Shown here one piece after another: positions 1,408-62,346 of a DNA stretch of 64,000 nucleotides. The notes beneath the pieces were generated by a model. That model was not told the origin of the DNA, made no database searches, and saw only the letters and a list, made by a program, of their open reading frames with translations. The position numbers and the translations under genes were made by a program. Source of the stretch: Escherichia virus TH41; the sequence record MT446412.1, one strand, 5' to 3'. Each line of letters opens with the position of its first letter. Positions within the stretch are counted from its first letter, which is position 1.

Positions 1408-1437
1408 GTTTACAACCAGATTAAGATAAGACATAAT
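1408..1437 (+). promoter_or_regulatory. Early-type promoter (GTTTAC -35, cATAAT -10) for ORF 1479
   Basis: GTTTAC at 1408-1413, 18-bp spacer, CATAAT at 1432-1437, followed by conserved leader tccatactgagttaac also found before other plus-strand genes. Confidence 0.45.
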
Positions 1438-1478
1438 GATTCCATACTGAGTTAACAAACAAAACCCTGGGGTCCAAA

Positions 1479-1760
1479 ATGAACAAAGCAACTTTCCTTC
1501 TGAACACCTTTAAAAATCTGGAAATTGAAGTTATTGCATTGGTCAACAAATACCCGAATGGTGTTAATGGTAATGCTCTGAACAAACTAGTTAAAAAATA
1601 TGAAAACTTAGCATATGACACTGATTTCTGGTGGAATGGTAATTATTCTACTCACACTAAAGATAAAAATGGTAACTGGTTGAAACTTCAAGAAAACAAT
1701 GTTAACTTCAGAGACCTCATCAAGCGCCGGGTAGAAGTTCATTTAAATGGTATGGTATGA
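1479..1760 (+). CDS. Hypothetical small protein (93 aa) on opposite strand between late genes 24 and 23
   Basis: ATG start, own promoter-like sequence upstream and terminator downstream; no recognisable motif. Confidence 0.5.
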   Translation: MNKATFLLNTFKNLEIEVIALVNKYPNGVNGNALNKLVKKYENLAYDTDFWWNGNYSTHTKDKNGNWLKLQENNVNFRDLIKRRVEVHLNGMV

Positions 1761-1770
1761 AAACAAGAAA

Positions 1771-1792
1771 GGGACCTCAAGGGTCCCTTTTT
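1771..1792. terminator. Bidirectional rho-independent terminator
   Basis: gggacc-tcaag-ggtccc hairpin flanked by A-run upstream and T-run downstream; sits after ORF 1479 (plus) and after gene 23 (minus). Confidence 0.6.
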
Positions 1793-1810
1793 ATTTAACT
1801 TAATCTAGGA

Positions 1811-3370
1811 TTAAATTCCTTTAACATATACGCGGCGGAAGTAACCGTTCAAGCCGAGGCTATTAACGATGTCCGGCATACCATTCTGAATGCGCTTGGT
1901 CGGAGCCTGAGCAGCAGGGTCAGCAAACGGGTTGATACCGATACCGTAACGGGTTTTGAAGCCCATAACCGGCTGGAAGTTTTTCGGGTCAGAGCCACGC
2001 AGCGGGGTCAGTGCAACATATGGTGCGTAGTAGATACCAGCATCCATTTCGTTAGCGCCTTTGTAACCGATGGTGAAGTAATCTGCACGAGCATACTGGT
2101 CGATATAGACACGGTATTTGCCACCCAGAACACCAGCGAACACAGCTTTAGTGGTGTCAACGTTGAAACCTTTACCCAGACCCTGAGCAGCATAACTTAC
2201 AGAAGTATCAACAGCAGCCAGTACGTTAACTACGTTACGGGAAGCGATGATGAAGTTACCTGCACCACGACCGGTCTGACGAGCGATTTCAGCGGCTTCT
2301 TTATCAATCTGGAACAGTAAAGCTTTGAAGCTTTCACCAGCCCAACGAGCACCACGGATATCAATCGGGTCCTGGAAGTCAAACACACCAGCTTTAGCGC
2401 CAACGGTGTTGGTCATACCAGATTTACCAACCTGTGCGGAGTAGTTAATCCAATCGATAACTTCGCGGTTGATTTCCAGCATAATTTCGGTAGCCAGAAT
2501 ACCACTCAATTCGGCATCAGCATCCATACCGTGAACAGCGCGCAGGTCCTGTGCCAGTTCGATGGAGTAGCTTGCTTTCAGCTGACGGGATTTAGCTTCG
2601 ATAACTTGTTTGTCGATGCGGAAGCCCATTTCGTTCCACGGGTTATCAGAGGAACCGTTAAAACCTTCTTGCAGTTCGGCGATGGAGGTAGCCATACCTT
2701 CAGCCAGTTCAGCCAGCTGACCAGCTTCAACCAGAGCGGTAACAGCAGCGTCAAGTTTAGCAGCGTCAGTAGCAGCAGCATCAACAGTTACAGCTTCAAC
2801 AGCCTGGAAGTGTGCAGAACCAGTTGCTTCGAAGAAGTGAGAATAAATTTTACCAACTTCCAGAACTTTGCTTGCAGCCAGTGCTTCAAAAGTCTGAGCA
2901 GCGCCCTGACCAGAGAACATAGCGTTCGGAGCATACATCGGGTGGAAAGCTTCTTTAGCACCAGCAGCGACAGGGTCTTTACCGTAAACTGCACGCAGGG
3001 CAAATACCTGGCCAGTCGGGTTGTTCAGAGGCTGTACGCCACAAATATCAAACGCAATCAGATGCGGGATAGCACGACGAACCATACCCATAACTGCCGG
3101 CCCAATCTGAGTTACTGCACCAGAGGTCTGGCCAGCGGCGATATTGGTAGCATCATAACCATGGTCACCACCGATTTCAGCTTCGGTCAGGAAAGAACCA
3201 AATGCTTCGGAGATTTTTTCATCACGGTATTCAGGAGCGGTCAGGATATCTTGTTCCTGGTTTTCAAAGATTTTAGCGATGATAGCTTGTTTAGAAGCAC
3301 CAACGATTTCAGGAAGAGCTTCGTTTTCCAGCAGAGCGGACCATTTTTGAACTAATGCATTCTTTTTCAT
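1811..3370 (-). CDS. 23: Major capsid protein gp23
   Basis: 519-aa ORF; long stretches identical to T4 gp23 as recalled (e.g. GSFLTEAEIGGDHGY, AELSGILATEIMLEINREV, C-terminal YFRRVYVKGI). Confidence 0.95.
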   Translation of the reverse strand: MKKNALVQKWSALLENEALPEIVGASKQAIIAKIFENQEQDILTAPEYRDEKISEAFGSFLTEAEIGGDHGYDATNIAAGQTSGAVTQIGPAVMGMVRRAIPHLIAFDICGVQPLNNPTGQVFALRAVYGKDPVAAGAKEAFHPMYAPNAMFSGQGAAQTFEALAASKVLEVGKIYSHFFEATGSAHFQAVEAVTVDAAATDAAKLDAAVTALVEAGQLAELAEGMATSIAELQEGFNGSSDNPWNEMGFRIDKQVIEAKSRQLKASYSIELAQDLRAVHGMDADAELSGILATEIMLEINREVIDWINYSAQVGKSGMTNTVGAKAGVFDFQDPIDIRGARWAGESFKALLFQIDKEAAEIARQTGRGAGNFIIASRNVVNVLAAVDTSVSYAAQGLGKGFNVDTTKAVFAGVLGGKYRVYIDQYARADYFTIGYKGANEMDAGIYYAPYVALTPLRGSDPKNFQPVMGFKTRYGIGINPFADPAAQAPTKRIQNGMPDIVNSLGLNGYFRRVYVKGI

Positions 3371-3391
3371 GTGTTGTATAACCTTATTAAA

Positions 3392-20560: not shown

Positions 20561-21429
20561 TATACCGGTACTCCGATTGTTTGGGCGGAAATTACTTTAA
20601 TAGCGAGCTTCATGGCAGTGGGTGAGCTTATAGCCGCCTGAATGATATCCTGGTTATCAATTCTAAAATCGATGGCATATATCTCATCTTCTTCATTAGT
20701 TTGTCCACGTCTGATTACAGCGTATTCTGTGCTATATACCTTGCGGTCCTTAAGGTCGATGTAAAGTAATATTTCTGATGCTTTGTATTTAGTTTCGTCT
20801 GTTGAAATAGCCGTCAGCATCAATTTGATAGTTTTATAATCTGCACGGAAAGCAAGTGGAATATCACGAACAACCGAGCTCATATTGTATGTTTTGTCGA
20901 GCAATACAGATTGGTTGCCAAACATACTTTCAATTTTGTAGTCCCATGTCCCTACGCCGTTAGCATCGTCAATACACCACAATGTAATTTTTGTATAAGG
21001 CTGAGTAAATTTCATTTTGTTCGTTGCAGCAGTCAGGAATGAATCCGTGCCTTGTAGTTCAACTTCCAGAGGCAACGAGGTGGATAATGAACCATTGGAG
21101 TTAATAAAGATAACACCTTCGCCTGCTTTACCTTTTGCAATTCTTGCAGTGATAACACCTTCGGCAGTATTGACATCCCGCATAGAACCGAGAGCAACAG
21201 TTGAGTTCCATTCAATGATATTTGTGGCTTTTTGATAGTAGCCGGTCGCATGAAGTACCTGGGAGTTTTCTCCATTATTCACAGAGTACAGACGCTGGTC
21301 GCCGAATGTATTATACAAACTGTCTAAATCCACGTTCAGTTTACGACCGCCTTCATATAGAATATCACCGGTGCTGGCGTTACCAATCTCGCCGATGTCT
21401 ACTAATAATTTTGGGGTTTGATTAATCAT
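20560..21429 (-). CDS. 9: Baseplate wedge protein gp9 (long tail fibre socket)
   Basis: 289-aa ORF; synteny. Confidence 0.8.
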   Translation of the reverse strand: MINQTPKLLVDIGEIGNASTGDILYEGGRKLNVDLDSLYNTFGDQRLYSVNNGENSQVLHATGYYQKATNIIEWNSTVALGSMRDVNTAEGVITARIAKGKAGEGVIFINSNGSLSTSLPLEVELQGTDSFLTAATNKMKFTQPYTKITLWCIDDANGVGTWDYKIESMFGNQSVLLDKTYNMSSVVRDIPLAFRADYKTIKLMLTAISTDETKYKASEILLYIDLKDRKVYSTEYAVIRRGQTNEEDEIYAIDFRIDNQDIIQAAISSPTAMKLAIKVISAQTIGVPV

Positions 21430-38902: not shown

Positions 38903-38903
38903 C

Positions 38904-40036: not shown

Positions 40037-40078
40037 TGATTCCATACTGAGTTACACAATAAAACACTGGAGAATAAA

Positions 40079-40384: not shown

Positions 40385-40456
40385 ATTAGTGCTTTAATGG
40401 GAACATGATAGTATGTTCCCTGGATAATAAAACTTTAACCATCTGAAGGAAATACC

Positions 40457-41050: not shown

Positions 41051-41057
41051 GATAAAA

Positions 41058-41074
41058 AGGGGGCTTTGCCCCCT
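41058..41074. other. GC stem-loop (agggggc-ttt-gccccct)
   Basis: Perfect 7-bp stem; T-run present only on the minus-strand side. Confidence 0.4.
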
Positions 41075-41094
41075 AATTGGGAGAGGAGAATATT

Positions 41095-42610: not shown

Positions 42611-42611
42611 T

Positions 42612-42893: not shown

Positions 42894-42902
42894 GGAACTA
42901 TT

Positions 42903-43100
42903 ATGTCTCGTGAACTAGATTGTGCAATCCGTACTGCCGCGGCAGCTATTGAAAACGTTATCCAGATTTGTAAAGAAGAGCGTGAAGAAGCTGATATCTA
43001 TATCGATGGTGTTCGTGACCTAGAACGACATATCACGCTTTATAATGGTTGTATTACTATTAGTGGTACCTCTTGGGTGTCCTCCTCTTACGAATGCTAA
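42903..43100 (+). CDS. Small protein, W-x-SS-x-x-C family member 3 (65 aa)
   Basis: C-terminus ...GTSWVSSSYEC; AAGGAA SD. Confidence 0.55.
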   Translation: MSRELDCAIRTAAAAIENVIQICKEEREEADIYIDGVRDLERHITLYNGCITISGTSWVSSSYEC

Positions 43101-43109
43101 GGAAATAAA

Positions 43110-43328
43110 ATGACTGCTAAAACTGTTAAAGAAATTGAAGACCAAATCCGTGCACTAATCTGTGAAGGTGAACAACTGGCCGATAAAACCGGCGAACACT
43201 TCCGTAGCGGTGGCGAAGAATATATTCCAGCTTCTAGTCCGGAATATAACGATTATGAATGGGTTCGTGACGAATATTGTATTCCAGAAGGTGAAGGTTT
43301 CTGGTTTAACTCCTCTATGTCTTGCTAA
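43110..43328 (+). CDS. Small protein, W-x-SS-x-x-C family member 4 (72 aa)
   Basis: C-terminus ...GFWFNSSMSC; AAGGAA SD. Confidence 0.5.
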   Translation: MTAKTVKEIEDQIRALICEGEQLADKTGEHFRSGGEEYIPASSPEYNDYEWVRDEYCIPEGEGFWFNSSMSC

Positions 43329-43337
43329 GGTGATAAA

Positions 43338-43571
43338 ATGACTACTGCTGTTGAACATGCTGAATTAGAAAAAGCTGCCCTTGAACTGGCTGCACTGTAT
43401 AAGAAAGTAAAAGATATGGCTTTTGCTCAAGATTTCGGTGTTGAGCTTGATGATTATGACGGCGAAGTCCGTCTTGAAGACTGGTTGAACAGTTCTTGTT
43501 ATGGTGAAGAAGCTGGTCGTACCTTCGTTGCTCGTGCCGATGGTAAAATCTGGTACCCAAGTTCATGTTAA
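43338..43571 (+). CDS. Small protein, W-x-SS-x-x-C family member 5 (77 aa)
   Basis: C-terminus ...KIWYPSSC; AAGGTG SD. Confidence 0.5.
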   Translation: MTTAVEHAELEKAALELAALYKKVKDMAFAQDFGVELDDYDGEVRLEDWLNSSCYGEEAGRTFVARADGKIWYPSSC

Positions 43572-43792
43572 AATTGAAAAAACGATACATTCGTAAAATA
43601 AATGGTCTTCGCGATTATGCCAAAGGTTGGCCATTAAATCTTATTATGGCTGATAGACATCCACGTTACAATACCGAGTTGACTTATTACAAAAAGTATG
43701 ATTCGTATTGTCGGTCTAAAGCGGGTCGTTTAGATGGTTCCTATGAAGAATATTTCGGTAAAAAACCTACTCGCATTTCGTTAGGAAAATAA
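43565..43792 (+). CDS. Hypothetical basic protein (75 aa)
   Basis: ORF overlapping the upstream stop; Lys/Arg/Tyr-rich. Confidence 0.4.
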   Translation: MLKLKKRYIRKINGLRDYAKGWPLNLIMADRHPRYNTELTYYKKYDSYCRSKAGRLDGSYEEYFGKKPTRISLGK

Positions 43793-43823
43793 TTTAATCA
43801 CAAGGATGTGATAGGAGGACTTT

Positions 43824-44153
43824 GTGCATAAAGATTCAGTATTCAAATATCTTTTGAAAACAGATAAAGAATTCTATATGAATGGGCAAGCTTTCTTGTT
43901 CGTTCGCGGTAAACGTGAGATGTTTTACAAATGCGACCTCTCAATGCATCATCATATGTATCATACCCACGGTGAGTTTATACTGGGGTTCTCTGGTGAC
44001 GAAACCAGACATATAGCTATGTACTACGACCATTTTAAGCTCAATGATTGCGGTGACAACGCTCTGGTCTGGAATCCATCTTGGCGTCGTTGGGATAAGG
44101 TAGACAACGATAAATTATTTTTAGAATATTGTAGAAGCAGTATACAAGTCTAA
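43824..44153 (+). CDS. Hypothetical His-rich protein (109 aa), apparent GTG start
   Basis: ATAGGAGGA SD 4 nt before GTG; HHHMYHTH motif. Confidence 0.4.
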   Translation: MHKDSVFKYLLKTDKEFYMNGQAFLFVRGKREMFYKCDLSMHHHMYHTHGEFILGFSGDETRHIAMYYDHFKLNDCGDNALVWNPSWRRWDKVDNDKLFLEYCRSSIQV

Positions 44154-44217
44154 AAAACTGTGTTACTATACTCCTATCAACTGATGACAATCACGTTATC
44201 AGAACAGGAGAATAAAA

Positions 44218-44418
44218 ATGTCTATCGCAAACGAATTAATCAAAGTTCTGAACGAAGCCAAAGTCAACCAACTGGAGGTTAATCTCCAGGAAGTTTCTGA
44301 TGGCATTAAAGTAACCATCAGTGGTGATTACGCAGGCGTCACAGAACGTGTTTGTGATTCTCTGGAAGAAGTAGTTTCCTGCATTAAAAGAGATATTTAC
44401 GCATACGGTATTATTTGA
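44218..44418 (+). CDS. Hypothetical protein (66 aa)
   Basis: AGGAG SD; promoter-like cassette upstream. Confidence 0.5.
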   Translation: MSIANELIKVLNEAKVNQLEVNLQEVSDGIKVTISGDYAGVTERVCDSLEEVVSCIKRDIYAYGII

Positions 44419-44611: not shown

Positions 44612-45571
44612 ATGATGTTAGTTATTGGTTCTCGTGCATTGCATAACGCTGGTCTGATTGAAAGTCAGAAAATTGAAAATTCTGATTGGGACTTTATCGC
44701 TGACCAAGGTTCTTGGAACCACTTTAAAGCACGTATGTTCGGTGCTCATGTTCCTGTGGATAACCCTAACGTCCAAGCTTTTAAATGTATGTACAATGGC
44801 AAAGAAACCTATTTTGAAGCTTATATTGTCCGTGCCCTGACCAACGTACGAGAAATTACTGGTGAGCTTCAAGACGAAGATTTCACCTCAAGTTATCGTC
44901 TCCTGAAATATGCTGAAAATCATATTAAAAAAGATCGTCTTACAGGTTTTTACTGGGCAACTCCTGATATTTGTCTGGCAATTAAATTATCTCATCGTTA
45001 CCTGAAGAACAATCCATTCTTCCTGAAGACCATGAGTCATATTAATTACCTTCGCAATAAGGGTGTTGTTCTTAATGATGAACTGCAGAAAATCATGTTG
45101 CAGCGTCAGGCAGAAACACTGTCATACAGCCACCCTAAACTAGACGTGGGCAAGAAAACTTTCTTTAATGATACAATCTATACCCTTGACCATGACTCCA
45201 TCCACGAGGCTGTGGCGCTTGCTGATAAGCCTGCATATAAGTTCTATATGAAGGATGATTCAGAAGTCATGACCTCACGTGAAAAATTTGAAGCACTCCC
45301 TGATGTTATTAAACTGGCAGGGGTTTATGAAGAAGCATGTGTGCTTGCTCTGGAGCGTTCGCAGGTTCCAAATGAGTTCAATATCTCTCCATCCGTGAGC
45401 TTCCATATTGCGCTGGAAAAAGTCTGCACCTCCATTACTTCTGGATGGTTCCGTGAGTATGCCTGGGAACATTACCAGGAAGTGGTTAATATGTATAACA
45501 CTCTGGGGCGCGAAGACTATGTTAAACGCTTCAAGGCTAACCAACATTTAATTCGTCCTTTCACAAAATAA
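44612..45571 (+). CDS. Pol-beta-type nucleotidyltransferase-like protein (319 aa)
   Basis: N-terminal VIGSRALHNAG...ENSDWDFI resembles the GS-x(n)-SD-h-D-h nucleotidyltransferase motif. Confidence 0.45.
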   Translation: MMLVIGSRALHNAGLIESQKIENSDWDFIADQGSWNHFKARMFGAHVPVDNPNVQAFKCMYNGKETYFEAYIVRALTNVREITGELQDEDFTSSYRLLKYAENHIKKDRLTGFYWATPDICLAIKLSHRYLKNNPFFLKTMSHINYLRNKGVVLNDELQKIMLQRQAETLSYSHPKLDVGKKTFFNDTIYTLDHDSIHEAVALADKPAYKFYMKDDSEVMTSREKFEALPDVIKLAGVYEEACVLALERSQVPNEFNISPSVSFHIALEKVCTSITSGWFREYAWEHYQEVVNMYNTLGREDYVKRFKANQHLIRPFTK

Positions 45572-45573
45572 GT

Positions 45574-45610
45574 GTGTACATCCAAGTGGGACCATGACAC
45601 AATGGTCCCA
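45574..45610 (+). promoter_or_regulatory. Early promoter cassette with 10-bp perfect palindrome
   Basis: GTGTAC followed by gtgggaccat-gacaca-atggtcccac. Confidence 0.35.
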
Positions 45611-45630
45611 CAATCAATGAGGAAAATATT

Positions 45631-46317
45631 ATGAACAGTCCAAAAACTTTTAATTCTCAAGCTCGTGCAGTAGGCGGTTTCGCTGGTAAAATTTCTAATG
45701 ATAAAATCAAAAACGAAACTATGTTCTTCAACAGCTCATTGGCTTTCGCTTTTGACAATGGCGGTCCTATTACTCGCAGCTTTATCATGAACCTGCCGGA
45801 TGATTGGAACACTGACCAGGTTGTATTTGATTCTCGGGTTCATATGTTGATGCCTGGTTGGTATCCTGCTATCCCTGGGTATCACCATGATGATGTGCCA
45901 CGCCCGGATATTCCGGTTGGTCAACACTTTATTACTGCAGGGCAACCTGATTATGATAATCCTCGTTACCATTCTGAACATATTCTTGGTCTTGTTAACG
46001 CCGATGTGTGTCCTACTTATTTTGCAACCGGAACTGCGCAATTTAGTCAGATTCCTGAAGGCGAACTTATCTATCGCCAGTGGCATAAAGAAGTTCTGGA
46101 AAAAATTGAGTCCAATGAATTAACCAAGTGGGATGCTCCTGACCGCACGTTGCTCCAGTTTGATTGGCAGACATGGCATACAGGTTCTCGCGCAGTAAGT
46201 AATGGTTGGCGCTGGTTTGGTCGTGTGTCTCGTAATACCGACCGTGTTAAAAAGATTACAAATGAAATCCGCGTTAATGCTCAAGTATATCTGGAATTCC
46301 CTATGGAGGGCTGGTAA
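45631..46317 (+). CDS. Hypothetical protein (228 aa)
   Basis: GAGGAAAA SD; His/Asp-rich central region (GYHHDDVPRPD); no confident domain call. Confidence 0.5.
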   Translation: MNSPKTFNSQARAVGGFAGKISNDKIKNETMFFNSSLAFAFDNGGPITRSFIMNLPDDWNTDQVVFDSRVHMLMPGWYPAIPGYHHDDVPRPDIPVGQHFITAGQPDYDNPRYHSEHILGLVNADVCPTYFATGTAQFSQIPEGELIYRQWHKEVLEKIESNELTKWDAPDRTLLQFDWQTWHTGSRAVSNGWRWFGRVSRNTDRVKKITNEIRVNAQVYLEFPMEGW

Positions 46318-47588: not shown

Positions 47589-47591
47589 TAA

Positions 47592-47613
47592 ATACCCCTA
47601 TATAAGGGGGTAT
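47592..47613 (+). promoter_or_regulatory. Hairpin sequestering the lysozyme e ribosome-binding site, with late-promoter-like box in 5' arm
   Basis: ATACCCC-tatataag-GGGGTAT hairpin ending 1 nt before the e ATG; aATAAATA (7/8 of TATAAATA) at 47587-47594 overlapping the 5' arm. Confidence 0.5.
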
Positions 47614-47614
47614 T

Positions 47615-48103
47615 ATGAATATATTCGAAATGTTACGCATAGATGAAGGTTGTAAGTTGGATTTGTATAAAGATACAGAAGGCTTTTGGACCATCGGTAT
47701 CGGGCAACTGATAACTAAGAACCCATCGAAAGATGTAGCTCGCGCTGAGCTCGACAAGCTTATGGGTCGTGTTTGTAATGGTCGCATAACCCAGCACGAA
47801 GCTGAAACATTGTTTAATCGTTCGGTCGAAAAAGCTAAAGCCGGAATCTTGAGACACCCTGTCTTAAAACCTGTTTATGATGTACTGGATGAAGTTCGTC
47901 GTTGTGCGCTCATTAATATGGTATTCCAGATGGGTGTTGCTGGTGTTGCTGGTTTTCCTAAGGGTATGCGATTGTTGAAGGCTAAATCATGGGAAGCCGC
48001 CGCTAAGGAACTGGCCGACTCGAGATGGTATAAAGTCCAGACTCCGAACCGGGCTAAACGAGTTATCGAAACTTTCCGCACCGGAACTTTTGACGCATAT
48101 TAG
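47615..48103 (+). CDS. e: Endolysin (T4 lysozyme e homologue)
   Basis: 162 aa; [12 protein letters not shown]...DTEG..TIGIG...[12 protein letters not shown]...[17 protein letters not shown] closely matches T4 lysozyme. Confidence 0.95.
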
Positions 48104-48131
48104 TGTACATCTCCAAATGGTAGGGTTATAA
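48103..48131 (+). promoter_or_regulatory. Early promoter cassette upstream of denV
   Basis: GTGTAC, spacer, TATAAT flanked by taggg...cccta inverted repeat; leader tatcaactacggag. Confidence 0.4.
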
Positions 48132-48158
48132 TGGCCCTATCAACTACGGAGAACAAAC

Positions 48159-48575
48159 ATGACTCGCATTAATTTAACTCTGGTATCTGAACTTGCTGAC
48201 CAACATCTTATGGCTGAATATCGTGAGCTTCCTCGCGTGTTTGGTGCAGTTCGCAAACATATACAAAATGGTAAAAAGGTTTCTGACTTTAAAATTCCAT
48301 CATCTTTTCTTTTAGGAACTGGTCATGTCACCTTCTTTTATGATAAACTTTTGTTCCTTAAAAACCGTCATCAAGAACTTATTGCGGAATGTTTAAAGCG
48401 AGGGTTTAACATAAAAGATATTTCTACCCAAGATTTAAATGATATTCCTGATGAATGGAAGAATGATTATCAACCATCAATCTGGTCAATTGAAATCAGT
48501 CAAGCCAGACTGAATGAGAAAATTTCTCAAAAGCCTACCTGGTACAAATACTATGGGAAAGCTGTGTACGCTTAA
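48159..48575 (+). CDS. denV: Endonuclease V (pyrimidine dimer DNA glycosylase)
   Basis: 138 aa; N-terminus [31 protein letters not shown] matches T4 endo V. Confidence 0.9.
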
Positions 48576-48593
48576 CTAAAAAGGTTGTATAAT
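48564..48593 (+). promoter_or_regulatory. Early promoter (GTGTAC -35-like, TGTATAAT extended -10)
   Basis: 18-bp spacer; overlaps the denV 3' end. Confidence 0.4.
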
Positions 48594-48623
48594 GATTTTA
48601 TCAACCAAACAATGGAATATAAA

Positions 48624-48938
48624 ATGAAAACTTATCAAGAATTTATTACTGAATCTACCCAAAAACGTGTTGAAGGCGGTTATGTCTGGATTGAACAGTT
48701 AACCCCACCAAGTGAAACAAGCACAGGTTCATGGAAAATTACTGTTGATGGTCCTGGCGGCAAACGCAAGACTATTAAAGAAATTAAAGGCTATTATGAT
48801 GAAGCTAAATCATGGGCGGGTAGTCATGTAATGCAGATTAAAATTGCAAATCCGGATAACGTTCATGCAGCAAAAGCATTCCGTCGTATTGGTAATAAAC
48901 TTTATGATGCGTTTTTGCGCGATTTCCCTAAAGCTTAA
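48624..48938 (+). CDS. Internal-protein-like protein with CTS N-terminus
   Basis: Start placed at internal ATG giving MKTYQEFITES. Confidence 0.65.
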   Translation: MKTYQEFITESTQKRVEGGYVWIEQLTPPSETSTGSWKITVDGPGGKRKTIKEIKGYYDEAKSWAGSHVMQIKIANPDNVHAAKAFRRIGNKLYDAFLRDFPKA

Positions 48939-48951: not shown

Positions 48952-49215
48952 ATGAAAACGTATCAAGAATTTATTACTGAATCTGCCAAAGCTCCTGCTG
49001 GTTCCTTTAAAGTCCGCGCCTTCGCTGGCGATGCTGAAGACTTTGGCACCATGAAGCGCAATGGTTATTCTTTCTTTGGTGGCGATGGTAAAGAAATTGT
49101 CACATATGCAAAACGTCGCGAAATCGCATTCGTGGTTGCTGGTAAGAAAGTTGATGCTGACGATATTGAATGGGACTTTGAGACCTTTGGTATTGTTTCT
49201 GGCGGTAAAGCATAA
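48952..49215 (+). CDS. Internal-protein-like protein with CTS N-terminus
   Basis: Starts MKTYQEFITES; paralogue of 34791-35090. Confidence 0.65.
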   Translation: MKTYQEFITESAKAPAGSFKVRAFAGDAEDFGTMKRNGYSFFGGDGKEIVTYAKRREIAFVVAGKKVDADDIEWDFETFGIVSGGKA

Positions 49216-49217
49216 CT

Positions 49218-49246
49218 GTTTACTTTATGATGGGATAGTGTATAAT
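49218..49246 (+). promoter_or_regulatory. Early promoter / stem-loop cassette
   Basis: GTTTAC, 17-bp spacer, TATAAT; gggatag...tatccca inverted repeat; conserved leader. Confidence 0.45.
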
Positions 49247-49274
49247 TATCCCATCAACTACTGAGGAGAATAAA

Positions 49275-49472
49275 ATGTTAACTTATAAAGAATTTATGAA
49301 AGAAGTTAAAAAACTTAAAAAGACTTCTGGCGATGTTAAAATTGAAATCCATGGTCAAAACGTAAATGTGGTAGCGGATGGCCAGGCATTAGTTCTTTAT
49401 AGTGATAAAGACCAAGAATTTCGTGAAGCACAAAAGAAAAAATTTACCGTATGGCTTAAAAAAGCTGTTTAA
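49275..49472 (+). CDS. Internal-protein-like protein with divergent CTS
   Basis: Starts MLTYKEFMKEV; 65 aa. Confidence 0.5.
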   Translation: MLTYKEFMKEVKKLKKTSGDVKIEIHGQNVNVVADGQALVLYSDKDQEFREAQKKKFTVWLKKAV

Positions 49473-49480
49473 GGACCAAT

Positions 49481-49780
49481 ATGAAAACGTATCAAGAATT
49501 TATCACAGAAGCCAAAGCTCCTAAAGCATTTCAAATCGGAGTCCAGGGCAATTTAGACCAACAATATGTTGATGCTATTGTCGCAAGCCTCGGTAAACAA
49601 GGTGTACAAGTGGATTTGGTTGATTTTACTAAAGGTAATACTTTTAATATTGTCGCATCTAAAGGTTCTTTAGCTAAAGTTAAAAAGGCCTTTGGCGTAG
49701 CACAAGCATATGAAATTGACCATTCTGAATTAGAAAATAAAGGTCGCCAGAACACAATTAAAGGCTCTGGTTCTTTTTAA
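49481..49780 (+). CDS. Internal-protein-like protein with CTS N-terminus
   Basis: Starts MKTYQEFITEA. Confidence 0.65.
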   Translation: MKTYQEFITEAKAPKAFQIGVQGNLDQQYVDAIVASLGKQGVQVDLVDFTKGNTFNIVASKGSLAKVKKAFGVAQAYEIDHSELENKGRQNTIKGSGSF

Positions 49781-49941
49781 TAAAGGCAAACCGACCCTCT
49801 CCTCATGAACTTCGTGTCCTCTGAGTGATGGACCTTTCCCTACCTGTAATAAGGTCGAGCCCGAGTGCGGTAAGGGGTTTACATTCGGATACATGGACGA
49901 ATTAATGTGCCAAGGAATGGCCCCACAACTAAGAGACAACT

Positions 49942-50976: not shown

Positions 50977-51555
<579 letters not shown>

Positions 51556-51556
<1 letters not shown>

Positions 51557-51590
51557 TGTACAAGCAGATTGAAATGAGTTATGATTATCC
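51556..51590 (+). promoter_or_regulatory. Early promoter cassette upstream of regB
   Basis: GTGTAC then tgattatcccatcaaacaaaaggag leader. Confidence 0.35.
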
Positions 51591-51612
51591 CATCAAACAA
51601 AAGGAGATAATC

Positions 51613-52071
51613 ATGACTACTATCGATTCAAGTGTTTACATTCGCCGCAATAAACTTCGTCGCATTTTTGAAACGGAGTTCCTCAAAATTAATAATGCTA
51701 TCAACAAGGCTTGTAAAGAAGCAGGCCTTGAGGCATTCTTCATTAAGTACAGTCCACATCTGTTGGACCGTGCAATCCAACGTGAAATTGATGAACAATA
51801 TGTTTTTGACTTGTTTGGAAAAATCACACCACATGTAAAAGAAATCGTTGAATTCTTGGAGATGAAACCGCTCCCGGAAGTTGAAGCACAAATTGACCCG
51901 AATATGAACTACCGTCCACTTCGTCTGGAAATTACAGACAAGAACCTGTGGTTAGGAATGACAGTTAACCCAGCTCTTCCTGGGAAGTCTCCGACCATGT
52001 GTTGTCGTATGGCGTTTGTTAACTCTAATCGTCTGGAAGGAAAAATTAGCACAAAAGTGATTTATATCTAA
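51613..52071 (+). CDS. regB: RegB endoribonuclease
   Basis: 152 aa; VYIRRNKLRR.FE.EF..IN...HLLDRAIQREIDE.YVF.LF...RPLRLEITD.NLWLG matches T4 RegB as recalled. Confidence 0.85.
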   Translation: MTTIDSSVYIRRNKLRRIFETEFLKINNAINKACKEAGLEAFFIKYSPHLLDRAIQREIDEQYVFDLFGKITPHVKEIVEFLEMKPLPEVEAQIDPNMNYRPLRLEITDKNLWLGMTVNPALPGKSPTMCCRMAFVNSNRLEGKISTKVIYI

Positions 52072-52986: not shown

Positions 52987-53462
52987 TTACCCAGTATATT
53001 AAGGGCGATATCGTCGCCCTCTTTCTTCAAGGCAATATTATTGCACATGGTTGTAACTGCTTTCACACAATGGGTTCTGGTGTAGCTGGACAGTTGGCGA
53101 AGGCTTATCCAAAAGTTTTAGAAATAGATAAAACCACTACTGAATATGGTTCTCGTGATAAATTAGGCGATATGTCTATTGTTTTTAAACATAAGCCGAC
53201 AGGTTTTGGCATGTGCTATAACTTGTATACACAATACGAGCCAGGCCCTAATCTTGATTATGGCGCTTTAGTAAATTGTATGATAGAATTAAATCTACAA
53301 GCAGAAACCCTTTTGTTTAAACCGGTAATTTATATTCCACGTATTGGTTGTGGTATTGCAGGTGGAGATTGGGAAAAGGTTTCTAAATTAATCGACATGT
53401 TTACTCCTGATATTGATTTAATAGTGGTGGATTATGAAAGCACATTACCCACATCCGTTTGA
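52983..53462 (+). CDS. Macro-domain-like protein (159 aa)
   Basis: GDIVALFLQGNIIAHGCNCFHTMGSGVAGQL and IPRIGCGIAGGDW resemble the two conserved macro-domain glycine-rich motifs. Confidence 0.5.
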   Translation: MITQYIKGDIVALFLQGNIIAHGCNCFHTMGSGVAGQLAKAYPKVLEIDKTTTEYGSRDKLGDMSIVFKHKPTGFGMCYNLYTQYEPGPNLDYGALVNCMIELNLQAETLLFKPVIYIPRIGCGIAGGDWEKVSKLIDMFTPDIDLIVVDYESTLPTSV

Positions 53463-53646
53463 CCCTAAAAACAAAGCGGAAATTATTCGACGCTGGACCG
53501 AAACTCGAGTAACCAAATGTCCTATAAAAAGTCAACACAACACTGATAAATGGTATATCGGTGAATATGTTGAATATACTTTTATAGATAAAAATAAACG
53601 TAAACAGCACGTAGAAGAATATTGCCTAAAGGTACAATGGTTATGA
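53434..53646 (+). CDS. Hypothetical protein (70 aa)
   Basis: ORF overlapping the 3' end of the upstream gene; weakly supported. Confidence 0.35.
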   Translation: MKAHYPHPFDPKNKAEIIRRWTETRVTKCPIKSQHNTDKWYIGEYVEYTFIDKNKRKQHVEEYCLKVQWL

Positions 53647-55635: not shown

Positions 55636-55640
55636 TTCAA

Positions 55641-55668
55641 AAGGTCTGCCTTCGGGTGGACCTTTTTT
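55641..55668 (+). terminator. Rho-independent terminator
   Basis: aaggtc...gacctt hairpin followed by TTTTTT. Confidence 0.6.
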
Positions 55669-55678
55669 CATTTAGGGG

Positions 55679-55720
55679 TTTACATCACCATAAAAAGGGT
55701 GTACTATTATCCCATCAACT
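55679..55720 (+). promoter_or_regulatory. Early promoter cassette
   Basis: GTTTAC and GTGTAC elements followed by tattatcccatcaactactgaggag leader. Confidence 0.4.
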
Positions 55721-55735
55721 ACTGAGGAGAACACA

Positions 55736-55939
55736 ATGAGAATTAAAAATATCAAGATTGATGCAGTTAATACTGGTGATGAGGTTGTTATCTATCTTAA
55801 TGATTATGCAATCTTTATGGACAGTGCCACTGATGAAGAAGTGGTTGAACTCTTACAGAAAGCTCCATTTGAACTGTGTGAAGAAGATGCTACCCATCTT
55901 TCATCAGCAATTTTCTCATTATCATATGTGGTGGAATAA
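55736..55939 (+). CDS. Hypothetical protein (67 aa)
   Basis: GAGGAG SD. Confidence 0.45.
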   Translation: MRIKNIKIDAVNTGDEVVIYLNDYAIFMDSATDEEVVELLQKAPFELCEEDATHLSSAIFSLSYVVE

Positions 55940-58967: not shown

Positions 58968-58974
58968 ATTCTAA

Positions 58975-58997
58975 GGAACCCTTCGGGGTCCTTTTTT
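58975..58997 (+). terminator. Rho-independent terminator
   Basis: ggaaccc-ttcg-gggtcc hairpin followed by TTTTTT. Confidence 0.6.
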
Positions 58998-59010
58998 ATT
59001 TTAAAAAGTA

Positions 59011-59040
59011 GTGTACAACCAGATGGTCATGAGGCATAAT
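59011..59040 (+). promoter_or_regulatory. Early promoter cassette (GTGTAC / CATAAT)
   Basis: GTGTAC, 18-bp spacer, CATAAT, conserved leader gattccatactgagttaaca. Confidence 0.4.
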
Positions 59041-59081
59041 GATTCCATACTGAGTTAACAAATAAACAAACGGAGAATAAA

Positions 59082-59288
59082 ATGTTAGAATTAATCAAAG
59101 CTGCTGGTGAAAAAGGTCTGATGGTTAACACTCGTGACCCAGAACAACGTCAAGCATTTGGTGAGTTAAAAGCCAAAGGTCTGGTTAAAGCATCCCTTGG
59201 TATTGGTAATGCTTTGCGTGTGACTTTGACCCCTGCAGGTAAAGCAATGTTCTTCCCTAAACCATTACCAAAACGTCGTCGCAAGTGA
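59082..59288 (+). CDS. Hypothetical basic protein (68 aa)
   Basis: GGAG SD; C-terminal KRRRK. Confidence 0.45.
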   Translation: MLELIKAAGEKGLMVNTRDPEQRQAFGELKAKGLVKASLGIGNALRVTLTPAGKAMFFPKPLPKRRRK

Positions 59289-59294: not shown

Positions 59295-59597
59295 ATGAAA
59301 AAGTATGAACTTGACATGATTGAGGCATGTCTGAAATCTGCTGACCATTTTAAGTTGAAAATGCACAAGTTAAGAGGAATGGTCAAAACTTCAGAAGAGA
59401 AGAAGCGATATGCTCTGAAGGAGAAATGTAAAGCTCTTATCATGATGGATAAGCTGCAAATGGTCGCCGCAGAAGCTCACAGGACACGTAAGGCTGAGGC
59501 CCTTGGTGTTTATATGGCAGAGCAGCTTCATCGTGCCCAGCAAGCCGTTAAGAGCGTCTGGTTCAGCGGTGAAAATACTGAAAGAACTTTTAATTAA
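59295..59597 (+). CDS. Hypothetical protein (100 aa)
   Basis: GAGGAA SD. Confidence 0.45.
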   Translation: MKKYELDMIEACLKSADHFKLKMHKLRGMVKTSEEKKRYALKEKCKALIMMDKLQMVAAEAHRTRKAEALGVYMAEQLHRAQQAVKSVWFSGENTERTFN

Positions 59598-59599
59598 AT

Positions 59600-59629
59600 G
59601 TGTACATAGTATGGGGATAGACGTATAAT
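59600..59629 (+). promoter_or_regulatory. Early promoter cassette (GTGTAC / TATAAT)
   Basis: GTGTAC, 18-bp spacer, TATAAT, leader ttcccatactgagttacc. Confidence 0.4.
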
Positions 59630-59665
59630 GTTCCCATACTGAGTTACCAAATACTGGAGAATAAA

Positions 59666-60190
59666 ATGGAAGCCAAATCAATCTTTAATCTGATTAATTA
59701 CAATAATGGTAATTTTAAATCAGAAGCACAAAGTAAGTTCTTTAATGATGTTGCTTGTGCAGGCGAGATTACAGTATCAGGTGGTCAGACTTATAAAAAC
59801 GCCTGGAACTGGATTGTGACTGTTGATTCAGTTGGTATTGTTGATGTGTATAAAAACACCAACAAAAACCGCTCTTTGTTCTGGTCAAGAGAGACTAATG
59901 CAGAATATCAAGCGGCAAGAGCAAAGAAAAATATGCCTACTGAATCTGATGTACAAAACATCAAATCAGATATCCAATATTATGATGGTCTGATTGCTGA
60001 ACAACAAGCAGTGCTTGATAAGTTCAATGAAATCAAAGCATGTAAAGAGATTCCTGAATTCATGCGGGAATCAGTTAATGAACAATACAATCTCACTTCA
60101 GAGCGTATTGAAACCTATACCAAACAAAGAGCAGAGCGCCAGGTACTCCTTCAGAAGTTTGAAGAGCGTTTAAAGACGGTTCTCGCATAA
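59666..60190 (+). CDS. Hypothetical protein (174 aa)
   Basis: GGAG SD. Confidence 0.5.
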   Translation: MEAKSIFNLINYNNGNFKSEAQSKFFNDVACAGEITVSGGQTYKNAWNWIVTVDSVGIVDVYKNTNKNRSLFWSRETNAEYQAARAKKNMPTESDVQNIKSDIQYYDGLIAEQQAVLDKFNEIKACKEIPEFMRESVNEQYNLTSERIETYTKQRAERQVLLQKFEERLKTVLA

Positions 60191-60253
60191 ACGCTTTATA
60201 CCAAGGATGGTATAATGGTTCTGACCTTTGATTAATCTATTGAGGAAATTATT

Positions 60254-61105
60254 ATGTCACAAGCAATTAATGAAATTCGTTCTGAAGTTAAAAACGCTGT
60301 TAAATTCACAGGACGTATTCCAAGCACTAAAGATGTGGTTTTAAATGTTCTGTATATGATGTGGAATAAGTTCAATGTTTGTACTAATTCTGCTGAATTC
60401 ACTAAAATCTTTGAAAAGACCAAAGGCCTTCTTACATTAGAAGACCGAGTCATGAAATCTCTTCATCGTTCGGGTATGTTGTCTCGCGCTAATGCCAAAA
60501 TTATTCTTAAAAAATATAACAAAGGTTACGACCTTTATGGTCGTGCGATTAGCACCATGACGTTTGATGAAGTGGTTAAAGACCTTTGGAAGAACCAACG
60601 CCGTTTGCTGGCGCTTGGTGCGCGTCTTGCGAGTGGTCAAGATAAACAAATGACCTTTAAAACCAATAATTCTTTAGATTATAAACTATTTAATGTTATT
60701 AAAGGTCAAAATGAAGGTGAATACAGTATTTCTTCTTTTAGTGGATGTCAATACGAAAACTGGAAATTCCATCTTCGTTTGGCGTTGTCTGTACTGGAAT
60801 GTCATGGTGTTCTTACCTTTTATGATGTTCAAACTGGAGGCGTCCAGCGTATTAAATTATGTCAAATTAAAGACCAAGTTGAAGTCGAGAGTCCTTCAGA
60901 ACAAGCTCCTAAAATGGAACCTGTTCCAGTGCGAAGCAATGAAAAATATTCAGAGCAAATTGAGCTTTTCACTAAACAGATTGAAGAACTTAACATCACC
61001 ATCCAGCAACAAGATGATGAAATTTTCCGCCTGACAGGATTGAACAGTGCAGCGAAAGCTGAACGTCAGAAACTGATGAACGTTATTGAATTACTTAAGG
61101 ATTAA
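60254..61105 (+). CDS. Hypothetical protein (283 aa)
   Basis: GAGGAA SD; extended -10-like TGGTATAAT upstream. Confidence 0.5.
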   Translation: MSQAINEIRSEVKNAVKFTGRIPSTKDVVLNVLYMMWNKFNVCTNSAEFTKIFEKTKGLLTLEDRVMKSLHRSGMLSRANAKIILKKYNKGYDLYGRAISTMTFDEVVKDLWKNQRRLLALGARLASGQDKQMTFKTNNSLDYKLFNVIKGQNEGEYSISSFSGCQYENWKFHLRLALSVLECHGVLTFYDVQTGGVQRIKLCQIKDQVEVESPSEQAPKMEPVPVRSNEKYSEQIELFTKQIEELNITIQQQDDEIFRLTGLNSAAKAERQKLMNVIELLKD

Positions 61106-61189
61106 TAATGGAATGGCTTGCTGTTCTTGGTTATGTAATTGCCGCCACAGGTATTCTGTGGCTTATATTCTCAAATATTGTAGGTTAAT

Positions 61190-61405
61190 ATGGAAATCGT
61201 AGGTTTTATTCTCCTTTACTTTGTGCTAGGATTCATGACGACCATTATCATTCATAAATCGGGTGATTGGAATCCAATCGAAATTGAATCAAGCTATGAC
61301 GCAGTATTCATTACACTAGTATGGCCTCTGCTTTGGTTTGTTTGGGCAATTATGATGGTGTTTTGGCCTATTGCTAAATTCTATGAAAAATTATTTGGAC
61401 TATGA
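61190..61405 (+). CDS. Small membrane protein (71 aa)
   Basis: Two hydrophobic segments. Confidence 0.45.
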   Translation: MEIVGFILLYFVLGFMTTIIIHKSGDWNPIEIESSYDAVFITLVWPLLWFVWAIMMVFWPIAKFYEKLFGL

Positions 61406-61406
61406 T

Positions 61407-62288
61407 ATGAAAATTAAAACACGTAAAGAATATTCTCGATTTGAACAGCGTGAAGGACGTGCAACCCGTCTTATCGCGATGAATTCTCTGGTTAACTTTG
61501 GCAAAATTAAATCAGGTTCTGCCACCCAGGGTTATGGCCAACGTATTGTAAGAATTAACTCTCTGAATGATTACTGCCGCCGCCCGGCGTTTTTGTTTGG
61601 TGCTACGGTTCGTAAGAGCATCAAGGAACTCCTGGCAGCTGGACTTCGTATTCGTAAAGCTCCGGTTAACATCAAGAACTATAATTTCAATTCCAGTAAC
61701 TTGATTATCAATATCAAGAATGATGGCGTGCAGATTAAGTTCAAGCCAACCACCAAGGGCGATGTTGCTCTTTGTGATACCTTTAAAGAGGTTATGGGTA
61801 TTGCACTGTTTTATATGCGTTATGCCGTTGAAGCATACACGTTTGAAGAAGATACAAATTATATCCATCAAACAGAAAAATTCCTTAAAACTATAGTCAT
61901 TGATATTAAATTAACTAAAGAATATCTTTTGTCTTATGCTCCTTATCAAGAGAAAAAGGAACCAGAAATGGCGGAACGTATCCCTACTGCATCATATGGT
62001 CCAGCATTTGCGGGTCAGTTTAAATCTTATGACCAGGCTAAAATTTCGCCACTGGACGTTAAAAACATGTACAAATGGAAAGTCCAACCATCCAGCTCTC
62101 TTGAAATCTTTAACCCACCAATGAAGCCTATTGAGAGCTATCATGCTGATGCTATCCAGGAATCAGTTAACCGCTTAAATGGTCTGATTGAAGATGAGAA
62201 AAAGGGTATCCAGGATGTCCTGAATCGCATCAAGAACATGGAAACGCAACGCAATAAATTGCAAGCTGCAATCAAAGCATTAAAATAA
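61407..62288 (+). CDS. Hypothetical protein (293 aa)
   Basis: Start placed at internal ATG MKIKTRKEY directly after upstream stop. Confidence 0.5.
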   Translation: MKIKTRKEYSRFEQREGRATRLIAMNSLVNFGKIKSGSATQGYGQRIVRINSLNDYCRRPAFLFGATVRKSIKELLAAGLRIRKAPVNIKNYNFNSSNLIINIKNDGVQIKFKPTTKGDVALCDTFKEVMGIALFYMRYAVEAYTFEEDTNYIHQTEKFLKTIVIDIKLTKEYLLSYAPYQEKKEPEMAERIPTASYGPAFAGQFKSYDQAKISPLDVKNMYKWKVQPSSSLEIFNPPMKPIESYHADAIQESVNRLNGLIEDEKKGIQDVLNRIKNMETQRNKLQAAIKALK

Positions 62289-62289
62289 T

Positions 62290-62319
62290 GTTTACTTCCA
62301 AGGATGGAGGGAGTATAAT
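62290..62319 (+). promoter_or_regulatory. Early promoter (GTTTAC -35, TATAAT -10)
   Basis: GTTTAC, 18-bp spacer, TATAAT; GAGGAG SD before the next gene. Confidence 0.5.
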
Positions 62320-62346
62320 GAATTCCTACTTTATGAGGAGAACACT

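Follow-up and report, generated by a model that had tools for sequence, protein, structure and literature searches.

Candidate early-gene control cassettes before accessory genes of the T4-like Escherichia virus TH41

The window analysed here, a 64,000-nucleotide stretch of Escherichia virus TH41 (sequence record MT446412.1), contains a family of short repeated units that stand on the plus strand before open reading frames (ORFs) and join a promoter-like pair of hexamers to a conserved leader and a ribosome site. Judging from this make-up, the units are very probably early-gene control cassettes of a T4-like phage, of the class published as promoter early stem-loops (PeSLs). A sequence-only reading of the window had listed about 19 copies; we confirmed that 17 units form one discrete family, with one further site marginal and one rejected. 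Each unit is named below by the position of its -35 hexamer.

Eighteen of the 19 listed sites share a -35-like GT(G/T)TAC or GTATAC, a gap of 17-18 nt (counted from the GTxTAC hexamer), a -10-like hexamer of the pattern (T/C)A(T/C)NAT, and an ATG 28-54 nt downstream. This agrees in kind with the promoter elements first described, GTTTAC or GTGTAC with a 17-18 bp spacer and a -10 like TATAAT or CATAAT. A profile built from these sites recovered exactly the same 18 in the window, at 19-51 bits and all on the plus strand; the next match scored 4 bits, and a search of both strands for extra copies returned nothing above that value. Because a profile trained on the sites it then recovers is partly circular, we ran a leave-one-out test, in which 17 of the 18 sites were recovered at 13-34 bits, whereas the best score in 20 random windows was 9.9 bits. 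The remaining one, listed at 44160, had been mis-registered, that coordinate being the -10 region of a unit whose -35 lies at 44140, and it is marginal at 5.8 bits. The site listed at 60196 (60191-60256, plus strand) does not belong to the family, since an extended -10, TGGTATAAT, is all that it shows and a -35 is missing at 16-18 nt; it may represent a decayed promoter or one of a different kind. Extra matches to a loose regular expression inside genes, for example at 33977, 43924 and 58933, were set aside as inconsistent with the profile.

A generic sigma-70 consensus scan of the region did not rise above shuffled controls (63 matches against 52.6 expected, and 53 against 53.5), as would be anticipated if the sites were chance matches to a loose promoter-like pattern. 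That explanation is refuted by the profile, which separates the 17 sites from random sequence, and by the sites themselves, which lie on one strand only, all directly precede an ORF and are conserved in eight related genomes. With the generic scan at chance level, the signal is a phage-specific motif and not promoter-likeness in general.

The units are 55-140 nt long and follow one layout: an upstream stop codon, an A-tract, the -35, the 17-18 nt spacer, the -10, CCC with the predicted start, a leader of 20-45 nt, GGAG and the ATG. Start sites in all units were placed from spacing and consensus. Anchored alignments gave aAAaAgtaGTgTAC for the upstream part, in which the A-tract ahead of the -35 is UP-like, and G-(T/C)AT(A/G)AT-(g/t)aTcCCAT for the -10 and start, with C-rich positions -3 to -1 and an A at the predicted start. 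The third base of the -35 is G in 11 of 18 sites (GTGTAC), a local variant of GTTTAC. At the level of sequence, this consensus matches the published T4-type early promoter, which has GTTTAC at -36 to -31, an A-rich stretch at -40 to -44, conserved positions -12, -11 and -7, and C-rich positions -3 to -1 (Nolan 2006, PMC1524935). The units are also packed closely against the gene upstream. In 11 of 17 units, 0-13 nt separate the end of that gene's stop codon from the -35; in five of these 11 the two share one base, the final base of the stop codon opening the -35 hexamer. In most cases the intergenic signal fits into 48-60 nt.

The genome that surrounds these units has a G+C content of 40.6% across the window, and its closest relative is Escherichia phage UPEC01 (99.7% identity over the 7 kb compared, window 34000-41000). 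TH44, VR20, SP18 and others rank after it; all belong to Straboviridae, Tevenvirinae, genus Gaprivervirus. By the annotation of these relatives, the minus strand of positions 1 to 30.7 kb carries late structural genes from gene 24 to gene 53. Plus-strand genes fill 30.8-64 kb, beginning with 4, 2, 3, 1, 57A and 57B and continuing into an accessory region, which holds internal-protein genes, trna.4, trna.3, two tRNAs, e.x genes, nudE, e and denV, and then more internal-protein genes, vs.x, regB, vs, tk, rI, mobD.x and nrdC.x. The stretch from 57B to nrdC is the classical hyperplastic region of T4-like genomes. It contains 17 of the 18 units (34-62 kb), all of them on the plus strand, in agreement with the earlier statement that the cassettes precede many plus-strand accessory genes. 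The late structural genes at 1-33 kb are without units, the sole exception preceding an inserted ORF of 93 aa. Of the 18 proteins encoded downstream of units, 13 belong to PHROG families of unknown function and another is without a PHROG match. Scanning the complete window against Rfam returned two tRNAs only, with no known RNA family at the cassettes or leaders.

PeSLs were defined by Arbiol et al. 2010 in phages RB49 and phi1, through promoter activity, terminator-like activity of one stem-loop and mini-circles, with 'PeSL-like sequences' mentioned only near gene 43 of JS98 (PMC2839356), and were extended to T4/PST and KVP40/nt-1 by Comeau et al. 2014 (PMC4122927). In the literature searched we found no description of PeSL elements for Gaprivervirus. 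Comparison with both studies supports the presence in our units of every feature of a PeSL that can be read from sequence, and the earlier identification with PeSLs therefore stands: the stop codon in an A/T-rich stretch, the early sigma-70-type promoter, the stem-loop mostly between the -35 and -10 or over the -10, the Shine-Dalgarno site with start codon, and the clustering in hyperplastic regions before small ORFs of unknown function are all matched. In RB49 and phi1, and in some cases here, indels that separate close relatives have these elements at their ends, although in the window this association is not statistically significant. The -35 is near-perfect TTGACA in RB49/phi1 as opposed to GT(G/T)TAC here, and the stems there are polyG/polyC, whereas ours are GGGATA/TATCCC-like; the promoter, terminator and mini-circle activities of RB49/phi1 are experimental, while any such activities of the window's units are predictions. 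The promoter consensus of the T4/PST and KVP40/nt-1 elements, TTTACW-N17-TAYWAT (PMC4122927), agrees with that of the window, which prefers G at the third -35 position. In PST the stem-loops are drawn upstream of the promoter, whereas most of those in the window enclose the -10.

Both conserved leader types proposed for the cassettes were recovered. The type-1 leader, ATCAACTAC..GGAG, occurs in six copies of the form (A)TCAACTAC(T)GAGGAG, at units 35090, 35424, 35734, 48103, 49218 and 55678, with about four looser relatives at 34108, 44140, 48564 and 51556. The type-2 leader, CATACTGAGTTA(A/C)C, is present in six exact copies, at 1408, 38963, 39482, 40008, 59011 and 59600, against 0.27 expected.

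Where the leaders meet the gene, six units end in GGAGAATAAAA abutting the ATG. This is an exact match to GG*AGRAYARAA, the strong consensus for cleavage by RegB and ribosomal protein S1 in T4 early mRNAs (Durand 2006, as reviewed in PMC3014915). The consensus GGAGRAYARAA occurs seven times in the window against 0.47 expected, and all six occurrences on the plus strand are cassette ribosome sites. The only GGAGAATAAAA outside a cassette, on the minus strand at 61204-61214 inside the ORF at 61190-61405, is probably a chance match. More generally, 13 of 17 cassette-led genes, but only 7 of 61 other plus-strand genes, have a GGAG no more than 16 nt from the ATG (p=5e-7). T4 RegB cuts GGAG in early ribosome-binding sites (PMC3014915), and the window encodes its own homologue, a regB endoribonuclease gene of 152 aa by the relatives' annotation (51613-52071, plus strand; phrog_1323, E 1e-71), which is itself led by a cassette and, like T4 regB, has a GGAG site of its own. 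Because the leader end matches the RegB consensus, and by analogy with T4, we infer that the cassette carries its own switch-off signal, a predicted RegB cleavage. The likeness to the RegB/S1 sites of T4 is bounded on two sides: four of the 17 cassette genes have no GGAG, and cleavage in the window is a prediction from sequence.

The inverted repeat that had been said often to bracket the -10 was assessed by folding the 40 nt from the -35 to about +12 of each unit and expressing the result as a z score against shuffles, with z <= -2.7 taken as significant. In 10 of 18 units this gave a significant hairpin whose loop contains or adjoins the -10: 34108 (34117-34149, -16.5 kcal/mol, z -5.2), 35090 (35098-35128, GATGGGATA/TATCCCATC, -16.8 kcal/mol, z -6.6), 35424 (35431-35463, containing a G.U pair, -12.3 kcal/mol, z -3.1), 35734 (35746-35770, -12.6 kcal/mol, z -3.5), 39482 (39491-39522, -16.7 kcal/mol, z -5.3), 45574 (45586-45611, GTGGGACCAT/ATGGTCCCAC, -19.6 kcal/mol, z -4.3), 48103 (48118-48142, with two G.U pairs, -13.4 kcal/mol, z -3.8), 48564 (48583-48606, A/U-rich, -7.4 kcal/mol, z -2.7), 49218 (49228-49256, -17.2 kcal/mol, z -5.4) and 59600 (59607-59641, -16.2 kcal/mol, z -4.4). 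Unit 59011 was borderline, with a weak bulged hairpin (z -1.9), and at 40008 a GGGGG..CCCCC stem (40003-40022) overlaps the -35 instead of the -10. The remaining six units had none in the folded stretch. Units 1408, 38963 and 55678 have no hairpin around the -10, and at 62290 none was significant; 1408, 44140, 51556 and 62290 have neither a -10 hairpin nor a -35 stem nor an upstream terminator, and of these 51556 and 44140 have leader hairpins (see below). The claim of a bracketing repeat thus holds for a part of the family.

Stems vary by lineage, GGGATA/TATCCC, GTGGGACCAT/ATGGTCCCAC, GTGTAGG/CCTACAC and TAGGG/CCCTA among them, and cognate 5' and 3' arms were more complementary than swapped arms in 5000 of 5000 permutations. 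We compared stem variants in 144 copies from the window and eight relatives, comprising 92 distinct cores in 19 lineages. On the plus strand these variants were mostly G.U, with 16 G.U pair types against 5 A.C (one-sided p=0.013), and in the lineage of 45574 one stem pair is C-G, U.G or U-A in different phages. As a G.U on one strand is an A.C on the other, the asymmetry suggests that selection acts on the plus strand in single-stranded form, RNA being the simplest case. We regard this as a moderate argument that hairpin complementarity is selected at the level of the plus-strand single strand, and not as a cruciform or protein-binding palindrome. That the inverted repeat acts as DNA, either as the operator of a dimeric repressor or as a cruciform cut by endonuclease VII to start recombination, seems very improbable to us. 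In its favour, the -10 at the centre of the repeat would be a natural target for a repressor, and how T4 early promoters are shut off is only partly understood (PMC3014915); but the stems differ completely between lineages and yet stay complementary, which argues against a sequence-specific binding site, and a cruciform or double-stranded site would be symmetric, whereas the plus strand tolerates G.U about three times more often than A.C.

The predicted start of each cassette transcript is the A that follows CCC, roughly 7 nt past the -10, and lies in the 3' arm of the hairpin. Since the 5' arm is upstream of the unit's own predicted start, the hairpin can form only in RNA that reads through from upstream. 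One possible reading, which we hold tentatively, is that the -10 hairpin is an RNA device that tells a cassette's own transcripts from read-through ones, and not a DNA or terminator element. Such a device might work by hiding the ribosome site in read-through RNA (as predicted below for regB, here and in T4, and for the gene at 44218); alternatively, a hairpin about 10 nt upstream of the RegB cut might become the protective 3' end of the upstream message. For the cassette account as a whole, several observations on the hairpins count against it. Six to seven units have no hairpin at all, and the G.U to A.C count rests on relatives that are not independent, at only p=0.013. In addition, conservation of the 3' arm (TATCCCAT or CATACTGAGTTA) extends to units that lack the 5' arm, so part of the apparent hairpin conservation may reflect another constraint.

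The role first proposed for PeSL stem-loops was that of terminators or attenuators of upstream transcription, and for the window's -10 hairpins we consider this rather unlikely. One stem-loop of RB49/phi1 was terminator-like in a lacZ test (Arbiol 2010, PMC2839356), and the window's hairpins can exist only in read-through RNA. Two units have a canonical terminator upstream on the plus strand, at 38904-38920 (AGCCCGCATTGCGGGCT followed by T5, before unit 38963) and at 55639-55666 (before 55678), and a terminator-like hairpin followed by T6, bulged and seen by eye but not called by the scan, lies at about 58973-58997 before unit 59011. The -10 hairpin is missing from the first two of these three units and weak in the third, consistent with -10 hairpins and upstream terminators doing a similar job on read-through RNA. 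However, none of the ten -10 hairpins has a T-run downstream and none was called by the terminator scan, so they fall outside the definition of an intrinsic terminator; their stems, 8-13 bp long and containing A and U, also differ from the polyG/polyC stems tested in RB49/phi1. A classical terminator role is therefore not supported by the sequence. In TH44 (21085-21140, opposite window 35090), an extra internal-protein gene is preceded not by a cassette but by GGGGATAATTATCCCC and T5, which looks like the GGGATA...TATCCC hairpin minus its -10 loop, turned into a canonical terminator.

To return to the tentative reading of an RNA device, two units extend the pairing to the ribosome site. In the regB leader, a hairpin at 51577-51618 pairs the -10 and discriminator with the GGAG and AUG (-17.7 kcal/mol, z -5.6), and at unit 44140 the AGGAGA ribosome site is paired with an ACUCCU that shortly precedes the predicted start (z -2.8). 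The T4 regB region (NC_000866, about 62740-62812) also has a hairpin whose 3' arm covers the ribosome site (-21.6 kcal/mol, z -5.3), formed by arms unrelated to those of the window. With the ribosome site as the 3' arm at regB and 44218, only transcripts from the units' own promoters should be translatable. In T4, the ribosome site of genes e, soc, 49 and I-TevI is masked in long transcripts by a hairpin that has the promoter inside it. The regB and 44218 arrangement is alike in that the 5' arm precedes the predicted start and the ribosome site itself forms the 3' arm; it differs in that the internal promoter is late in T4 and early in the window, and in the window's ten -10 hairpins the ribosome site lies outside the stem. 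Directly before the window's own lysozyme gene e, a hairpin at 47591-47614 (UACCCCUAU..AAGGGGGUA) includes the ribosome site, with a z of only -1.3, and recalls the arrangement known from T4 gene e.

Many of the units have counterparts in T4. In the T4 region from 44 to 80 kb, profile matches precede trna.4, ipI, regB, denV and several genes of the nrdC/mobD region; they have GTTTAC and a -10, many with a -10-enclosing stem of other sequence, such as GATGAGGTA/TACCTCATC at ipI. The type-1 leader ATCAACTACTGAGGAGAATAAAATG of the window is identical to that before T4 trna.4, where the orthologous T4 promoter has a different stem from unit 35734. Orthologous promoters at the same genes indicate that many units are old and were inherited with their gene. 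The T4 regB promoter is an early one (PMC3014915), and the RefSeq T4 record has no annotated promoter features.

The type-2 leader CATACTGAGTTA is absent from the T4 region searched. It occurs at 8-12 places per Gaprivervirus genome and also in Morganella phage MP1, of genus Gualtarvirus, whose record authors annotate the homologous motif as a putative promoter found with MEME. In MP1 (986-3078), a long hairpin encloses the -10; CATACTGAGTTA(A/C)C forms its 3' arm, and the 5' arm, (T)AACTCAGTATG, follows the -35. The leader is likewise the 3' arm of such a hairpin in some window copies, and the 5' arm is partly or wholly decayed at 1408, 38963 and 40008, where the leader copies (1443-1454, 38998-39009 and 40043-40054) are invariant despite that decay. 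The persistence of AUACUGAGUUA(A/C)C at predicted 5' transcript ends in two genera, despite a decayed partner, suggests that it may have a function of its own. Neither the relation of this leader to a longer hairpin nor the RegB-consensus match of the leader end had been picked up in the sequence-only reading.

The cassettes had also been proposed to provide homology for modular gene shuffling. We aligned the window to eight relatives, chained the BLAST matches and counted breakpoint clusters in 33653-60000. Of 49 clusters, 14 fell in cassette territory, which makes up 7.5% of bases, 27 at other gene junctions (11.5% of bases) and 8 inside genes (81%). Rearrangements thus respect gene boundaries strongly. 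Cassettes, however, are neither the only places of gene gain and loss nor significantly preferred ones, and three results count against a special shuffling role: 10 of 16 cassette junctions were hit against 23 of 52 others (one-sided Fisher p=0.16, not significant), the per-base enrichment of breakpoints at non-cassette junctions is about equal to that in cassettes, and about 17 of the roughly 30 distinct events are bounded on neither side by a cassette. Event counts are approximate, as chaining gave very large 'replacements' (e.g. 39555-44416 against TH44) that probably hide diverged homologous DNA.

These results would suit a plainer account, in which the units are ordinary, vertically inherited early promoters whose similarity reflects a shared functional consensus and which have no special role in shuffling, indels simply surviving at gene boundaries. 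The orthologous T4 promoters before trna.4, ipI, denV and regB favour it as well. We regard this account as possible yet somewhat doubtful, since individual copies have recombined in a way that it does not anticipate. VR20 has a cassette a, gene gp142, a cassette b and the 39553 homologue where the window has a single cassette, and window unit 39482 is identical to VR20 cassette a up to CCATACTGAGTTA and to cassette b from there. SP18 has a cassette whose 5' half matches unit 35424 and whose 3' half matches unit 35734, with the 35479-35733 gene missing; this crossover lies in GTATGATTATC(C/T)CATCAACTACTG. In both comparisons the crossover inside shared cassette sequence leaves a chimeric cassette. 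SP18 also joins a 59600-type promoter to a 59011-type leader, and units 35734 and 49218 are identical at about 47 of 49 positions over hairpin and leader, more than a consensus requires. As 13-50 nt of near-identical sequence is common to the cassettes, we consider them occasional crossover points, and the shuffling claim is retained in that reduced form.

The proposed tie between cassettes and paralogue families was borne out in part. About nine window genes start with MKTYQEFI.E or a close variant, the capsid-targeting sequence of internal-protein genes being 10 residues long (PMC9026906), and five of them have a cassette; the genes at 39044 and 39553 are paralogues. Several homology breakpoints coincide with the -35, lie within the hairpin or the leader, or fall exactly where the 10-codon targeting sequence ends. 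In two internal-protein-like genes, at 35175 and at 49305-49310, similarity to TH54 and TH57 breaks off 30-35 nt beyond the ATG, at or a few bases past the end of that sequence, which indicates that promoter, leader and targeting peptide form one conserved module before variable protein bodies. The polymorphism of the internal-protein locus (Repoila 1994, as cited in PMC4122927) is similar in that five cassettes drive MKTYQEFI.E-type genes and homology stops at the leader end; it is unlike the window in that four further genes with the same leader lack their own cassette.

Other gains and losses were seen alongside these. UPEC01 is without window 49215-49839, including two small genes, and also without the small genes at 43338-43792, while 53437-53641 (region 53434-53646) is absent from most relatives; the breakpoints of 43338-43792 and 53434-53646 are at ordinary gene junctions without a cassette.

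Taken as early-gene control cassettes, the units suggest a sequence of events. Host sigma-70 RNA polymerase would fire the cassette promoters immediately after infection. Phage RegB with ribosomal protein S1 would then cut the GGAG(AATAAAA) ribosome sites, shutting the same genes off within minutes. The roughly ten -10 hairpins, present in read-through RNA only, would most likely mark or end the upstream message, whether by pausing or attenuation or by supplying a protective 3' end once RegB cuts about 10 nt downstream. At regB and 44218, where the ribosome site is the 3' arm, only own-promoter transcripts would be translatable. Over evolutionary comparisons such as those above, cassettes would occasionally serve as crossover points that delete, insert or swap modules of a gene with its cassette.

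The individual units, all on the plus strand, are as follows. Cassette 1396-1481 has -35 GTTTAC at 1408-1413, -10 CATAAT at 1432-1437, type-2 CATACTGAGTTA at 1443-1454 and ATG 1479, and scored 24.2 bits leave-one-out; with its 93-aa ORF (phrog_6003, unknown function; 1396-1760 together) it stands alone on the plus strand between the opposite-strand late genes 24 and 23. The first accessory-region cassette (34096-34171) has -35 GTGTAC at 34108, on whose G the 57B stop codon ends, -10 TATTAT at 34132-34137, GGAG and ATG 34169, the start of an internal-protein-like gene with a capsid-targeting leader. Three units with type-1 leaders follow: 35078-35148, with -35 (A)TGTAC at 35090, -10 TATAAT at 35114-35119, GGAG and ATG 35146 (MKTYQEFINE); 35412-35481, with -35 GTGTAC at 35424, -10 TATGAT at 35448-35453 and ATG 35479 (internal virion protein, phrog_8111); and 35722-35793, with the -35 at 35734, -10 TATGAT at 35757-35762, GGAGAATAAAA at 35781-35791 and ATG 35791 (trna.4 homologue).

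The next three units carry type-2 leaders. Cassette 38904-39046 has its -35 at 38963, -10 CATAAT at 38987-38992 and ATG 39044 (33.1 bits leave-one-out); 39470-39555 has -35 TTTTAC at 39482, -10 TATAAT at 39505-39510 and ATG 39553; and 39996-40081 has -35 GTATAC at 40008, -10 CATAAT at 40032-40037, GGAGAATAAAA at 40069-40079 and ATG 40079 (13.0 bits). The marginal unit (44128-44220) has -35 GTATAC at 44140, -10 TACTAT at 44164-44169, GGAGAATAAAA at 44207-44217 and ATG 44218. Cassette 45562-45633 has its -35 at 45574, -10 CACAAT at 45598-45603 and ATG 45631. Before denV, in cassette 48091-48161, the -35 at 48103 overlaps the gene e stop codon, with -10 TATAAT at 48127-48132, a type-1 leader and ATG 48159. 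In cassette 48552-48626 the -35 at 48564 lies within the end of denV, followed by -10 TATAAT at 48588-48593 and ATG 48624 (MKTYQEFITE), which opens a gene of the same PHROG as that at 34169. Cassette 49206-49277 has -35 GTTTAC at 49218, -10 TATAAT at 49241-49246, a type-1 leader, GGAGAATAAAA at 49265-49275 and ATG 49275 (MLTYKEFMKE).

In the regB cassette (51544-51618; 29.1 bits leave-one-out) the -35 at 51556 overlaps the upstream stop codon, with -10 TATGAT at 51580-51585 and ATG 51613. Cassette 55639-55738 has -35 GTTTAC at 55678, -10 TACTAT at 55702-55707, a type-1 leader and ATG 55736. Two type-2 units, both ending in GGAGAATAAAA, come next: 58973-59084, with the -35 at 59011, -10 CATAAT at 59035-59040, GGAGAATAAAA at 59072-59082 and ATG 59082 (34.4 bits); and 59588-59668, with the -35 at 59600, -10 TATAAT at 59624-59629, GGAGAATAAAA at 59656-59666 and ATG 59666 (NrdC.8 homologue). 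The last, 62278-62349, has -35 GTTTAC at 62290, -10 TATAAT at 62314-62319, GAGGAG and ATG 62347 (13.8 bits).

Other putative control elements were noted in the window. A middle-promoter-like site at 40389-40459, with a MotA-box-like GTGCTTTA and a -10 TAGTAT in a hairpin (GGGAACAT/ATGTTCCC, z -2.3), precedes the e.6 homologue (ATG 40457) and resembles the 'PmSL' of phage nt-1 (PMC4122927). A 120-nt spacer at 36841-36961, before a small ORF and the tRNA-Met/tRNA-Arg pair, folds at -26 kcal/mol (z -4.65) without an Rfam match and holds a perfect 10-bp stem, AAAGGUUCUU/AAGAACCUUU, followed by CATAAT. The 161-nt spacer at 49781-49941, with neither ORF nor cassette, was considered as a small RNA and rejected, being no more structured than shuffles (z 0.17). 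T4 late-promoter motifs, TATAAATA, lie on the plus strand at 30752 (before gene 4), 33199, 34493, 37836 (before the 37875 ORF) and 54892 (rI), which predicts that some genes in the 'early' region also have late promoters.

These data leave the general picture of T4-like gene control unchanged, and in that respect the finding is largely ordinary. What is added to the known PeSLs is the RegB match, the evidence for plus-strand selection on a hairpin that can form only in read-through RNA, the predicted sequestration of the ribosome site at regB, the origin of the type-2 leader as a hairpin arm and the negative result on preferential shuffling. The published idea that PeSLs drive shuffling is tempered accordingly, gain and loss in this sample occurring at gene boundaries in general. 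For Gaprivervirus, a genus used in phage-therapy collections, the units provide a clean, testable catalogue of early promoters. One compact unit combines a predicted switch-on, in the form of a strong early promoter, with a predicted switch-off, a RegB-type site, and often with a hairpin confined to read-through RNA; if the hairpin is indeed an RNA device of the kind proposed, the cassette would be a full punctuation mark for early polycistronic RNA.

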